From assembly GCA_964016885.1 (NCBI GenBank), contig OZ024760.1, forward strand, positions 16,616,001 to 16,680,000: DNA of 64,000 nucleotides. The letters run 5' to 3'. This document shows positions 7,996 to 57,799 of this stretch, in pieces. The position numbers and the translations under genes were made by a program. Position 1 is the first letter of the stretch, and every line of letters starts with the position of its first letter. The stretch is from Eledone cirrhosa (Eukaryota). The notes beneath the pieces are model-generated. The model saw only the letters and a list, made by a program, of their open reading frames with translations. It did no database searches and was not told where the DNA came from.

Positions 7996-8040
7996 TAGTG
8001 ACTTCGAAGTTTCGCCAGTAATGGATTCCTTCAGACTGCT
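7996..8040 (-). ncRNA. Variant hammerhead-like motif
   Basis: Minus strand reads CAGT-CTGAAGGA-ATCCA(TTAC)TGGC-GAAACTTCGAAGTC^-ACT. Palindromic stem III ACTTCGAAGT and GUC triplet; core deviates (CUGAAGG); adjacent to a TA-rich tract. Confidence 0.5.
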
Positions 8041-10813
8041 GAATATAAATATATGTATGTGTATATACATATATATATACACACGCACACACACACACAT
8101 ATATATATATATGTATATATATATATATATATAATATATATATATATATATATATATATATATATATATATATATATATATATATATATATATATATATA
8201 CATGTAGGATCGAAGTTACTATTGAAACATATATATAAACGTTATTCGTATATTATACACTTGTCTTATATATATATATATATATATATATATATATATA
8301 TATATATATAAAGAAAATGTCGCTCTACATGGCTGAATACAATAAATGTAATCTGAGTTTTTCGAATATTAATAATAACATTCCATATATATATATATAT
8401 AATATATATATATATATATATATATATATAGAGAGAGAGAGAGAGAGAGAGAGAGAGAGAGAGAGATTTTCTGGTGCTGAAACCGAGGAGATTCCTAATT
8501 GTGGGAATACCTACAAGCCGAAATCGCTTGGCACCGCAGTCGGGATTTTACATCTCTCTCTATATGTGTGTGTGTGTGTGTGTGTGTGTGTGTGTGTGTG
8601 TGTGTGTGTGTGTGTGTGTGTGTGTGTGTGTGTGTGTGTGTGTGTGTACGGAAGTATAAAAACGTCATTATTTTGCCAAAACGTCATTATTGCGTGAAAA
8701 ATCATTATTGTGTCAAAATTCATTATCATACCACCAAAACCGCATTATTACGTCAAAACGTCATTATTCTCCACACGTCATTATAATGGGAAAACGTCAT
8801 TCATACTACGTTACACAACACCACACTACACTATATTACACTACACCACATCACATTGCACCACACAACATCACACCACACCACACAACACACTACACCA
8901 CACAACAAAACACGACACCACAGTACATCACATCATACCACACAACACCATATCATACCACACAACACCACACCACACCACATACCACCACACCACACCA
9001 CAATAACACAACACCACACCTCACCATAGCACACCAATAGACAACATCTATATCAACTCTCAACAGTTAGGTAAACTGTATAAAATATGACAGCTCTCCT
9101 ATAATATATAGGTAACCACGCCTTTGGGGCTGCAAACATCTTAAAACACATACAAACACATGTATGTATGTATATATATATATATATATATACACACCAT
9201 CCATATATATATATATATATACACACCATCCATATATATATATGTATATATATATATATATACACACCATCCATATATATATATATATACATACATCCGT
9301 CACATATACACACCACCCATATACACGCCACACACAGATATCTATAGAGATATAAGTGATATATATATGTATATATGTATGTATATATACACATCCGATA
9401 CATATACACCACACACAGATATTTGTAGAGATATAGGTGATGCATGTATGTATGTATGTATATATGTATGTATGTTTGTATATACGTAAGTATATATGTA
9501 AGTATGTATATAAGTATGTTTGTATATATGAATATATCAATGTATATATGTATGTATACATGTAATGTATGTATGCATGTATGTATATATATATATATAT
9601 ATATATACACACATACATATGTATATGTGTATATATGTATATATGTATATATATATATATATTTTTTTTTTTTTTTATTTATTTATTTTTTTTTTTTTTT
9701 TTTTTTTTTTTTTCTGTATATATATATATATATGTACGTATGTAAGTATATATATATATATATATATACTTACATACGTATATATATATATGTATGTATA
9801 ATATCTCTGTATCTATGTGTACATAAATATATTCTATGTTTATAGAAACATACAGGCCCTCAATACACCCGTGTGGTAGAAGTGTGCCGTGTGTCGGATG
9901 TATGTTTACTCATGTGAAAGGTAAACAGGATTATAATTTGGCAAGGACGAGCCAAACATATATACAGCGCCTATATATATATATATATATATATATATAT
10001 ATATATATATATATATATAGAGAGAGAGAGAGAGAGAGAGAGAGATATAGATATATTAGTGCATATATATAGATAGATATAGATATATTAGTGCTTATAT
10101 ATATATATATAGATATATAGATATATTAGTGCATATATATATAGATAGATATAGATATATTAGTGCATATATATATATATATAGATATATAGATATATTA
10201 GTGCATATATATATAGATAGATATAGATATATTAGTGCATATATATATATATATATGTATATGTAGACTGTATATCTTGTGTATATAATGTATGAAAATG
10301 TACGGAGGTGTATACAGTTTCATATATAACTGTCGATTGTCTTGATAACAAGTAATGTGCTTTTTGAAACAAGCTTTTCAAGTCTCCGTACACATCGCTC
10401 TCTCTCTCTCTCTCTCTCTCTCTCTCTATATATATATATATATATATATATATATATATATATATATATATATTTCTGTCTCTCTCTCTCTATCTATCTA
10501 TCTATCTATATCTCGCTCTCTCTCTCCCCCTCCCCCACTGTCTCTCTGTATATATATATATATATATATATATTCACGTTTGTGGTTCACCACTGTATAG
10601 AGCTAGTCTATTATTATATATATATATATATATATATATATATATATATATATATATATATATATATATATATATATATATATATATATATATATATAAA
10701 TAATGATTTATATGGTTTGTTGATTATTTAAAAAAATTAATTTTATAACAGATTAGAAGAACTCTAGAGATTTATGAGGAGTATCATTAATATAAATAAT
10801 ACAAAACCATATT

Positions 10814-10874
10814 TATTTTATTATACGTATTTCAAGGGTACCAATATTTAAGTACGCTTTCGTCAGATAATATA
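10814..10874 (-). ncRNA. Type I hammerhead ribozyme, dispersed family A
   Basis: Minus: TATATTAT-CTGACGA-AAGCGTAC..GTACCCTT-GAAA-TACGTA-TA^-ATAAAATA; flanks homologous to the 25.9k, 47.8k and 57.1k copies. Confidence 0.78.
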
Positions 10875-12354
10875 TAACATTTTGTGTTAAGATAGTGACA
10901 TATCTTTATGTGAACTTAATAGTATAAGTCCAATGAATATATATATATATATATATATGTATATATATATATATATATATATATATATGTATGTGTGTGT
11001 GTGTGTGTGTGTGTGTGTGTCCGTGTGTGTGTGTGTGTGTGTGTGTGTGTGTCCGTGTGTGTGTGTGTGTGTGTGTGTATAAGTTTATAGTGTAATTGTC
11101 CTATTTTCATTGGTAAGGTGAGTTAAGCTCAGTACACATTTTAACCTTCCTTCTTCAGGAGCGAAAAATTATAGACCACCTATAATGGAGTAACTTCCCC
11201 ACAATTGACGAGACACTCCAGCCGCATTGAAACGATCGTAGCGATGTATAAATATATAATATTAATCCTTGGTCTTATTGAATTTTGAATTATATATACG
11301 TATATATATATGTGTGTGTGTGTGTGTGTGTGTGTGTGTGTGTGTGTGTGTGTGTGTGTGTGTGTGTGTGGTGTGTGTGTGTGTGTGTGATTTTCCTGTC
11401 TTTTCTTTGTTTTGTTATCGGCTCCTATACATCTCAGCAACAGAGTGGTCACCCCATCTGCTGCACAAACTGACGTCACAGGTGCAGTGCCGCCTTTATG
11501 CGAGAAACCTCACTGTCTCCAAGATGGCCGACAATGTAGAGATACAACTAGCATTGGTATTATGTAACCGTGTGCATTTTCTGCCTATATATATATATAT
11601 ACATACTACACATATATATATATACGTATTTATGTATTTTTCTGTGAGTGCTTATATATATATATATATATATATATATATATATATGTGTGTGTGTGTG
11701 TGTGTGTGTGTGTGTGTGTGTGTGTGTGTGTGTATGTATTTATCTGTGTGCTTATATATATATATATACATATAGGCAATGTAAAAAACTAAAACAATAA
11801 CAAAGAGTGCAGTTACGAACAGTGTTGGTATTAGTTTATATATACATATATATATATATATATATGTGTGTGTGTGTGTGTGTGTGTGTGTGTGTGTGTG
11901 TGTGTCACTCTATTATACGCTGTAATGACAGAGACTCGTCTAGAGAGCCGACGACGTAATTATGGTAAATATACACAACACAGAAAATGACGGCAACCAG
12001 CAACAACATCAGCAATATCATCACAATCATCATCAGTAGCAACATGAAATGAAGTATATTTTGGGTCGAAAATATACATTATCCATCATCACAGAATTCA
12101 ATACACTTAGAACCAATCATTTATTGCATATCAATAGTAATTTCGTCCAACAAAAATGGCGTCTAACAAGCTAAAATGTCAAGACGGCCATTTTAACTGG
12201 TTATGTCTGGTATGTTTATCAATGAAATACGATAGTTGGTTTTGATTAGATATTATTATAGAGTTATTTGTCACTTTGGTGAGTGTATATAATATTTTCC
12301 AGTGTGAAATAACGACGTCAACTTTGGTTCAATTTCTAATACTAGGATTTTTTT

Positions 12355-13170
12355 TTTTTCAACACACCATCACGAATGTATATATATATGAGGACTTTTT
12401 TCAACACACTATCATGAATGTGTATATATATGAGGACTATTTTCAACACACTATACGAATGTGTATATATATATATGAGGACTTTTTTCAACACACTATC
12501 ACGAATGTGTATATATATATGAGGACTTTTTTCAACACACTATCATGAATGTGTATATATATGAGGACTTTTTTCAACACACTATCACGAATGTGTATAT
12601 ATATGAGGACTTTTTTCAACACATTATCACGAATGTGTATATATATGAGGACTTTTTTCAACACACTATCACGAATGTGTATATATATGAGGACTTTTTT
12701 CAACACACTATCACGAATGTGTATATATATGAGGACTTTTTTCAACACACTATCACGAATGTGTATATATATGAGGACTTTTTTCAACACACTATCACGA
12801 ATGTGTATATATATGAGGACTTTTTTCAACACACTATCACGAATGTGTATATGTGAGGTTTTCTTTTTTCAACACACTGGCACGTATGTATACATATGTG
12901 AGGATTTTTTTCAACACGATGTCGTGTATGTGTATATATGAGGATATTTTTAAACACACTGTCACCAATGTATATATATGTGAGGATTTTTTTTTTCAAC
13001 ACACTGACACATGTGTATATATGAGGATTTTCTTTTTTCAACACACTGTCACGTGTGTGTATATGTGAGGATTTTTTCAACACACTGATGTGTATGTGTA
13101 TATATGTGAGGGGTTTTTTTCAACACGTCCATGCGTATGTGTATATATGAGAATTTTTTTCAACACACTG
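12355..13170. repeat. 42-bp minisatellite, homogeneous centre, diverged 3' part
   Basis: gaggacttttttcaacacactatcacgaatgtgtatatatat repeated. Confidence 0.9.
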
Positions 13171-56838: not shown

Positions 56839-57055
56839 GTAATAATAATAAATGCGAAAACTAAAATCCAAAGAGCGCTCGATAAGGATAAATATATATC
56901 AAATATATAAGAACCGTGGAGCAAATATTTATTAAAATAACAGATTAAAGTTTAAGCAAAGAATCCCTGCTTTCACTCTTAACGGGATCTGCAGAAGATC
57001 CTTTAAGGGTGAAAGCAGGGATTCTTTGCTTAAACTTTAATCTGTTATTTTAATT
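56839..57055. mobile_element. Family F (TA)n-inserted fold-back; copies at 26187-26350 and 52639-52730
   Basis: Shared cagattaaagtttaagcaaagaatc; HHR-like CAGAAGA-TCC..G(G/A)GT-GAAA in all three copies. Confidence 0.72.
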
Positions 57056-57109
57056 TATATATATATATATAATATTAATAAATGGAAACTATCTTTAGAA
57101 AACCATATT

Positions 57110-57170
57110 TCTTCTATTATATATATTTCAAGGGTACCAGTATTTTGGTGCGCTATCATCAGATAAAACA
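57110..57170 (-). ncRNA. Type I hammerhead ribozyme, family A (element ~57071-57205)
   Basis: Minus: TGTTTTAT-CTGATGA-TAGCGCACCA..TGGTACCCTT-GAAA-TATATA-TA^-ATAGAAGA. Confidence 0.75.
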
Positions 57171-57746
57171 CAATATTTGGTTTACAGATAGTGACATATC
57201 TATAATTGTTGAATAATCAACAAATTAAATAACTCATTGTTTATATATACATGTATGTATATATGTATGTGTATATGTATGTATGTATGTGTGTATGTTT
57301 ACCCTTTCTGTTTATTTATGTTCTGCAACTTAGTAGTTTGACTCATAGAAATCGATAAAATAAATATCACACATTTGAAAAGAAAATATATAAATCACTT
57401 TAATATGGTGACCCCAACGTTGACTGTGGCATCTCAAAGATTATATAATTACATACATTATATATACATATATATACATATATATATATATATACATATA
57501 TATATATATATATATATATATATATATATATATATATATATATATATATATGTATATATGAGTGTGCGTGTCTGTGTGTGTCTATGTATGTGTCTCTGTG
57601 TTTGTGAGTGTGTGTGTGTGTTTGTGTGTGTTTGTGTATGTGAGTGCGTGTGTGTGTGTGTAGGTGTGTTTATCCCGGGTTCAGTCAGGGGAAACCACAG
57701 TAAGTAAGGTACTCAATACATTAGTAGAGTATATACAATGACAGTT

Positions 57747-57799
57747 GGCTTTCCTGATGATTTTTCTTCGAACGAAACAGTTCTAGTACTGTAGAAACC
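57747..57799 (+). ncRNA. Type I hammerhead ribozyme motif with stable stem III
   Basis: GGCTTTC-CTGATGA-TTTTTC(TTC)GAAC-GAAACAGT(TCTAGT)ACTGTA^-GAAACC. Confidence 0.68.

Follow-up and report, generated by a model that had tools for sequence, protein, structure and literature searches.

The 64,000-nucleotide stretch analyzed here (hereafter the window; Eledone cirrhosa, assembly GCA_964016885.1, contig OZ024760.1, positions 16,616,001 to 16,680,000 of the forward strand) is DNA of eukaryotic type with a GC content of 33%, and 53.5% of it was classified as tandem repeat by Tandem Repeats Finder, TA being the commonest tract. Scattered among these tracts are short insertions with hammerhead ribozyme (HHR) motifs, whose build resembles that of insertions of Penelope-like elements (PLEs). 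Some are fold-backs, in which two arms of one element stand head to head, and some continue downstream of the HHR into a further stretch present on one side only, here called the tail. Positions below are those of the window.

Motifs were counted outside a 311-bp HHR array, a separate finding described below, and compared with 200 dinucleotide shuffles of the segments free of simple sequence repeats (non-SSR). A strict type I descriptor gave three matches with the core CUGANGA (shuffle mean 0.03), five with CYGANGA, which allows U4C (mean 0.04), and seven with one core mismatch (mean 0.28, maximum 3); none of the 200 shuffles reached these counts under any of the three core settings. With a scored type I descriptor, in which the stem II region could extend to 130 nt, 17 motifs were found at a threshold of at least 20 (shuffle mean 0.23, maximum 2; 0/200 reaching 17), corresponding to one per approximately 3.5 kb. 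An earlier reading of the sequence alone had listed 17 folds outside the array at roughly one per 4 kb, and 15 of these score at least 20; its expectation that motif density would exceed that of dinucleotide-shuffled sequence holds within the window. The listed site at 55.9 kb was missed by a first version of the descriptor because its stem II region exceeds the 90-nt limit used there. Of the other two, the site at 8.0 kb (7990–8045, minus strand; core CTGAAGG at 8034, perfectly palindromic stem III) scores only 17 because of an A9G change, and the site at 50.4 kb, with a decayed stem I, was not recovered by the descriptor and is 89% identical to the copy at 33.0 kb. Beyond the listed sites, the descriptor added 20727+ and 52674+ (both at least 20) and 19885+ (17), and family homology added 25652−, 26348− and 56993+, as well as the 3′ halves of motifs within two fold-backs (32.6 and 43.95 kb). 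Weaker matches, scoring 12 to 17, overlap the shuffle range (mean 0.8 to 1.4), and the sites at 8.0, 19.9 and 39.3 kb, being individually weak, are less certain as hammerheads. Most copies carry damage adjoining the core, and only three pass the strict form. Among the matches listed from an Rfam scan (150 of 432), all were microRNA-family look-alikes of microsatellites.

BLAST comparison of 23 HHR-bearing segments gave 14 groups, 13 of them outside the array, or 12 if the 20.7-kb copy joins family C, where alignment places it. The view that the motifs belong to many unrelated families therefore holds in that 12 to 13 groups exist, but several listed sites share a family, and the lineages are fewer and more related than proposed. 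Family A alone accounts for six of the listed sites (10.8, 25.8, 25.9, 31.3, 47.8 and 57.1 kb), and the pairs at 33.0 and 50.4 kb (family B) and at 44.5 and 56.5 kb (family C) each form a single group. Family A comprises an element with a decayed tail and TA on each side (10703–10936, minus; core 10866), a fold-back (25750–26119) with a tail-less inverted arm (25848−) and a direct arm (25931+) bearing a 90-nt tail with a hairpin at 26037, a fold-back of subfamily A2 (31083–31399; HHR arm core 31304+, 99-nt tail, hairpin 31164−), a copy with HHR at 47764 and tail hairpin at 47868 (47671–47949, plus), a tail whose inverted arm is 7 nt long (56286–56381; hairpin 56300) and a tail-less copy (57072–57241, minus; core 57162). 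Family B is represented at 32934–33071 (minus; core 33049) and 50326–50460 (minus; core 50434), and family C by a tail-less copy with a long stem II (44372–44590, minus; core 44528), a copy with a long tail and a hairpin at 56620 (56449–56780, plus; core 56455) and the C-like copy (20700–21029, plus; core 20727), which was absent from the earlier list and has a stem II region of about 85 nt and a long tail. To family D belong a tailed copy (26187–26355, minus), a mini fold-back also absent from that list (52639–52728) and a fold-back whose arms start at the core and which carries a 92-nt tail (56839–57054). The two family F fold-backs lie at 45621–46058 (HHR 45817− on the inverted arm; 57-nt tail without hairpin) and 50052–50220 (truncated downstream of the HHR; matched pieces 100% identical to those at 45.6–46.0 kb).

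The remaining lineages are represented by fewer or more decayed copies. Family G has a decayed HHR (19860–19954, plus; core 19885) and a fold-back in which both arms begin within the HHR (25600–25700; core 25652−); family H has a lone tail (17382–17465, minus; hairpin 17453) and a fold-back (43954–44156) with an 80-nt tail, a hairpin at 44085 and a possible HHR 3′ half with 4 to 6 of 9 stem III pairs. Family I consists of a fold-back whose arms start immediately ahead of GAAA and of a stem III of 4 bp (32613–32802; 62-nt tail) and a lone tail with a GCTC/GAGC form of the hairpin (54391–54472, plus; hairpin 54413); in element J (57670–57825) an HHR arm (57754+) and a tail arm (hairpin 57730−) face each other head to head. 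Four further HHR elements complete the set: a single-copy one with a weak stem II (39230–39413, plus; core 39271, score 21), one with a U4C core (44226–44359, minus; core 44306), one adjoining a truncated short interspersed element (SINE; 52749–52825, minus; core 52811) and one with a 95-nt stem II region and TA on each side (55878–56235, plus; core 55943).

The scored descriptor imposed no palindrome on stem III; a perfect palindrome was present in nine of its 17 matches and a palindrome one change off in seven more, and family D has a closed hairpin in its place. Across four copies of family A, 91% of stem cells are paired, against at most 51% in slid controls, and four pairs are changed on both sides; stem II is restored by read-majority letters, which show no common change in the core. 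Conservation of core and stems within a family, on which the interpretation of the motifs had been made to depend, is borne out for family A, whose stems are conserved; the evidence of covariation there is no more than suggestive. Several core variants are present: U4C at 44306, 44528 and 56455, U4A at 52674 in family D, CAGAAGA in the family D copy at 26348−, GTGATGA in the family B copy at 33049, and frequent replacement of G10.1–C11.1 by A–U or U.U. Stem II regions of 79 to 95 nt occur in three lineages (20727, 44528, 55943 and 56455), that of family C retaining an ATTGAGT word. Small HHR variants in PLEs were reportedly described by Lunse et al. in 2017, and these may already include U4 variants. 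U4C and the U10.1–U11.1 mismatch are known natural variants, and the term U4A is absent from the main text of the report consulted in part (PMC3088659).

Many of the insertions share a common layout, consisting of (TA)n, an inverted tail-less arm, a truncated direct arm with a tail, and (TA)n. A hammerhead or family could be identified in 11 of 12 head-to-head units. The arms are unequal and the centre is different in every fold-back, while single-arm copies share the same 3′ ends. The one-sided tails of the fold-backs measure 57 to 99 nt. In family A the two 3′ ends are separated by about 90 nt. Families C, D, F, H and I likewise have one short and one long 3′ end, and within a family the 3′ ends recur at exactly the same base in different copies; 5′ ends differ from copy to copy. 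As judged by eye, and with no formal null and a possible ascertainment bias, 12 of the 22 arms in 11 units start within the hammerhead span, three upstream and seven downstream, so that 12 of the 15 arms reaching the hammerhead stop inside it; the unit at 48.5 kb was excluded, its hammerhead not being assignable. None of these 22 arms starts at the predicted cleavage site. Neither a unit length nor circular permutation was seen in the window copies of the dispersed families, and head-to-tail HHR units occur within the window in the 311-bp array alone. Two further fold-backs with a one-sided extension lie at 48470–48620 and 50784–50932, with no hammerhead assignable to either.

The association with TA microsatellites was examined from the ends of 22 hand-listed HHR islands, 30 of whose 44 ends adjoin pure (TA)n of at least 10 nt, compared with 56 of 186 for the 93 other islands (odds ratio 5.0, p = 5e-6); TA was present at both ends in 10/22 and 12/93, respectively. 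Moving outward from the core, the first pure dinucleotide tract encountered is TA for 20/23 motifs on the 3′ side, at a core-to-TA distance of 39 to 326 nt, and for 19/23 on the 5′ side (p = 0.012), against a background of 0.58. Of the hand-picked outward ends, 36 of 40 run into TA, compared with one of 20 ends of SINE copies. The enrichment of (TA)n at element ends suggested from the sequence is therefore present in both the island and the outward-end comparison. In addition, insertions are stacked with little besides TA between them: families G, A and D, a stub of an RTE-like long interspersed element (LINE), the array and subfamily A2 follow one another at 25.6–31.4 kb, and five insertions at 55.9–57.2 kb. 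Copies in a single direction carry TA at the truncated 5′ end as well (10.7, 44.2, 47.7, 55.9 and 56.4 kb, and the 17.4-kb tail). Both observations support the proposal that TA tracts act as landing pads, and we infer that the tract pre-dates the insertion.

Further copies of families D and A were sought among reads and contigs from 4 of 24 sequencing runs, aligned to 56839–57245 (407 bases) at 80% likeness. This gave 10,669 contigs (X1) and 19,594 reads (X22) from organism A; organism B contributed 30 contigs and organism C eight. Both families are plainly high-copy, read depth being no copy number. At the tail-less end of family D (56925), a junction with (TA)n was seen in 2,415 reads, 135 contigs and three organism B contigs, and opposite-strand (strand-switch) joints occur at varied positions in the reads. 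The loose-end consensus at 56990 reads stem I followed by the core CAGAAGA (3,092 reads, agreement 0.71; 126 contigs, 0.61). Among records aligned through 56993, this variant is present in 212 of 304 reads, yet in 26% of X1 depth; the U4A core is the majority form of family D, and a canonical-core minority is present. At 56926 the family D tail also meets a hairpin-CTAG sequence (806 reads, 26 contigs, one organism B contig), presumably a terminus of Helitron or Helentron type, and this joint is possibly that of a composite element that amplified the family D tail.

The tails of families A (including A2), C, H and I and of element J contain a hairpin of the form RCTY, inner stem, loop, inner stem, T[ATC], GAGY, that is, an outer RCTY/GAGY helix, a bulge of two bases (T[ATC]) on its 3′ side, an inner stem that varies and loops of 3 to 55 nt. 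Outside the array this motif, defined post hoc and cross-validated only in part, has nine matches against a mean of 0.68 in 500 shuffles, a figure that is circular because the motif was itself derived with eight of those nine in view. A pattern derived from families A and C alone gave seven sites, namely the five defining ones, the H tail and J, with none outside tails, which make up 3% of non-repeat bases; the H tail had been defined beforehand by its architecture, whereas that of J was recognized solely through the match. The hairpin pairs differ between families (outer, A–T or G–C; first inner, C–G or T–A; third inner, G–C, A–T, C–G or T–A), and the hairpin lineages share no other detectable sequence. 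The window copy of family D has a mispair at the first inner position, but the pair is restored in 99.8% of X1 depth, and a minority of 23 to 41% also mends the third pair as G.U; the hairpin is a feature of the read majority in this family. Several results weigh against a shared signal. The full hairpin is present in 8 of 17 tails and its 3′ half in 12 (the 44.1-kb match was missed in this count, perhaps through a tight cut-out), and it was not found in the family F tail or the 311-bp array. The outer helix alone is unspecific, because loosened motifs with other bulge sizes also give 4 to 8 matches each in the real sequence. Folding alone supports the hairpin in some tails and not in others: minimum free energy folding recovers it in the A, I and J tails and not cleanly in A2, C, D and H. 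The hairpin strands did not come into register in MAFFT alignments. The parts of the literature examined on PLE tails, PLE pseudo-long terminal repeats (pLTRs) and octopus hammerheads contain no report of such a hairpin that we found, although supplements might hold one.

The features of the window can be compared with published systems. Minimal HHRs in the pLTRs of metazoan PLEs number thousands per animal genome (about 2,000 and 1,300 in schistosomes, 4,000 in coelacanth and 9,000 in Xenopus), are heterogeneous and mostly solitary, and include close opposite-strand pairs 100 to 700 bp apart and a palindromic stem III, taken as the dimer-type form (Cervera and De la Peña 2014, PMC4209133, as far as consulted). 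The window motifs are alike in being of type I with a short stem I, a short palindromic stem III and often an extra base after A9, and in forming many heterogeneous families, mostly of single motifs, probably from truncated PLEs, with opposite-strand pairs among them; their density, in one window and with different descriptors, is 3 (strict) to 17–23 (relaxed) per approximately 60 kb. They differ from the HHRs described in the parts seen of that report in the A–U or U.U at G10.1–C11.1, the stem II regions of 80 to 95 nt and the recurring U4C and U4A. The insertion unit of endonuclease-bearing (EN+) PLEs is an inverted 5′-truncated copy with a 30–40-bp tail at one end, and Neptune and Naiad elements show a (TA)n bias (Craig et al. 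2021, PMC8557442, seen in part); inverted arms, a tail at one end and a (TA)n target that would hide any target-site duplication recur in the window. Because Naiads are without canonical HHRs (PMC8557442, same portion), the better fit here would be a Neptune-like clade or another canonical one.

For the Poseidon element PAc of Anolis, two internal start sites of reverse transcriptase (RT) delimit the tail, the AT-rich target is cut on both strands, the HHR is protein-assisted and mutants defective in HHR catalysis still insert (Frangieh et al. 2024, PMC11167929, in the sections consulted). The window elements likewise have two fixed 3′ ends one tail apart, downstream of the HHR. In PAc, however, the region after the HHR is the start of an open reading frame (ORF), whereas translations of the window elements inspected by eye showed no ATG-started frame from HHR through tail; the PAc start falls inside a stem-loop rich in AC, and no RCTY..GAGY hairpin was seen in the figure text of that paper. 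Non-LTR retrozymes are non-coding, of low GC content and carry type I HHRs (Cervera and de la Peña 2020, PMC7229834, part of the text), a class that the dispersed copies resemble in these respects and the 311-bp array fits; unlike these retrozymes, the dispersed copies do not form tandem units, their 5′ ends vary and their HHRs are minimal rather than canonical. In an Octopus vulgaris repeat annotation, 31 Penelope-like families are recently active, and the word ribozyme is absent from the portion of text consulted (PMC13282606). The kind of element found here is thus already published; the tail hairpin and an abundant, mostly U4A family were not found in the portions of the literature examined.

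Taken together, the insertions very probably represent minimal type I HHRs in the 5′-truncated pLTR ends of EN+ PLEs, or non-coding derivatives that use the same enzyme, and the pLTR origin first proposed from the sequence gains support from the head-to-head arms, the one-sided tail, the two fixed 3′ ends and the TA joined at the ends. In such a mechanism, the GIY-YIG nuclease would nick both strands of a (TA)n tract, a target that would read identically on both strands, and RT would prime on the RNA of the element at one or the other of two fixed sites, which would yield a 3′ end with or without the tail. Copying would usually halt after 30 to 330 nt, in many cases inside the ribozyme fold or shortly beyond it, and two cDNAs would be joined head to head; TA would be left on both sides of each insertion, so that tracts gather successive insertions. 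Self-cleavage is, on this analysis, probably dispensable for spread. Of the ribozyme-bearing retroelement community envisaged by the sequence-only reading, the PLE-type inserts in TA stand, but the copies are mostly decayed relics, a graveyard rather than a set of working ribozymes. We tentatively suggest, as a possibility that we hold less likely than its opposite, that one cis signal licenses these TA-targeting elements, the hairpin binding the RT of one PLE clade and setting the two starts and the hammerhead serving as the structure at which copying stops and cDNAs join; with 12 of 15 reaching arms stopping within the hammerhead, such a role would allow a U4A family to amplify widely.

A number of observations weigh against the PLE interpretation. 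No Pfam match to RT or GIY-YIG was obtained for any of the 255 stop-free pieces of at least 35 aa in non-SSR DNA, in agreement with the earlier statement that no such ORF is visible; since the inserts are truncated stubs, no RT or endonuclease remnant is expected in the window, but PLE clade membership consequently rests on architecture and not on protein, and we infer the link of the hammerhead inserts to a driver ORF. The window tails (57 to 170 nt) are longer than the 30–40 bp of EN+ PLEs in the part of PMC8557442 consulted. The TA counts lean high, since islands were delimited by microsatellite boundaries and the 40 ends were chosen by hand. As exceptions, the elements at 57.7 and 54.4 kb terminate in (CA)n, and the RTE-like LINE stub at 26.4 kb is likewise flanked by TA. 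A column shuffle of family A matches its pairs in 30/500 and its cells in 8/500 cases (four sequences; not significant), and the loose ends of the reads show 30 letters only. Separately, three-frame translation of 24 elements in hammerhead sense revealed no plausible ORF start by eye. Family words searched in viral and metagenome contig collections identified no related sequence; one match in a viral and one in a metagenome contig had flanks unrelated to the family and were taken as chance.

Other explanations account for parts of these data. The insertions could be dedicated short non-autonomous units, that is, retrozyme-like monomers spreading via self-cleaved circular RNA with the enzyme still supplied by a PLE, which we regard as unlikely but as the most serious of the rivals: no copy contains coding sequence, the 311-bp array among them has the same inverted, TA-flanked build with a one-sided extension, and a preprint, consulted in part, derives animal retrozymes from PLE pLTRs, with evenly dispersed monomers (Li et al. 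2026, 10.64898/2026.07.22.740005). Variable 5′ ends, the lack of a unit length or circular permutation in the dispersed families, the absence of arms starting at the predicted cleavage site and the wide distribution of family D despite its non-consensus core argue against such units. The array itself (26683–31024, inverted at 28121–28125) is a fold-back of 4.7 units inverted against 9.3; it is bordered by TA at each end and has a 32-nt extension on one side. It looks like a single PLE-type insertion whose template was multimeric or circular. It is improbable that the TA tracts were made by the elements, through addition or expansion at their 3′ ends, rather than being prior targets. Single-direction copies carry TA at the truncated 5′ end too and different families are stacked in the same tract, against which stands a 3′ association (20/23) slightly above that on the 5′ side (19/23); moreover, both outer ends of a fold-back are 3′ ends, so that TA on both sides is by itself no proof of a target.

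An origin of the fold-backs as DNA elements, either miniature inverted-repeat transposable elements (MITEs) or pieces of Helitrons or Helentrons with incidental hammerhead-like words, would explain the inverted repeats with TA at their ends and, if our assumed Helitron label is right, the joint of the family D tail to the hairpin-CTAG sequence at 56926. We consider it very unlikely in view of the unequal arms, the centre differing in each copy, the one-sided tail, the single-arm copies with the same 3′ end, and the core and stems kept across families. Chance matches in AT-rich, low-complexity DNA have a negligible probability, for although the cores are short, several stems III are plain ATATATAT and scores of 12 to 17 are also found in shuffles, none of the 200 shuffles reached the observed count at any threshold and the motifs recur at the same place across family copies.

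Several other repeats occupy the window. A SINE-like family, presumably resembling Octopus SINEs, has about 10 copies that are 75–97% alike (1189–1425, 1838–2072, 5011–5182, 34185–34331, 34525–34709, 34726–34801, 38585–38692, 52823–52889 and 63490–63829); these are without TA flanks and served as the control above. The 3′ remnants of LINEs, which we take to be of RTE type, were spotted by eye in translations at 26412–26656 (minus) and around 15951–16400 (minus), without a Pfam match, and the former sits among the PLE-like inserts with a TA tract on each side. A stop-free piece at 42017–42187 (minus) matches a C2H2 zinc finger just under the Pfam cut-off and is likely a LINE remnant. Inverted-repeat elements of about 100 nt, 82–90% alike and located at TA (18675–18762, 25293–25392, 33615–33709 and 58257–58357), look to us like Tc1/mariner MITEs, a label that we assume. 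Minisatellites lie at 15195–15950 (51-nt unit, 14.8 copies), 12354–13186 (42-nt, 19.8 copies) and 21908–22132 (31-nt, 7.3 copies).

With about a dozen lineages represented, the window is a densely packed natural collection of PLE insertion products. Should the tail hairpin prove to be an RT recognition site, it would be the first cis signal for PLE priming shared across families, would provide a direct construct for an in vitro PLE assay and would help to classify short unclassified repeats in microsatellite-rich invertebrate genomes. A widely amplified, mostly U4A family would, furthermore, be a natural test of the role of ribozyme cleavage in the spread of PLEs.

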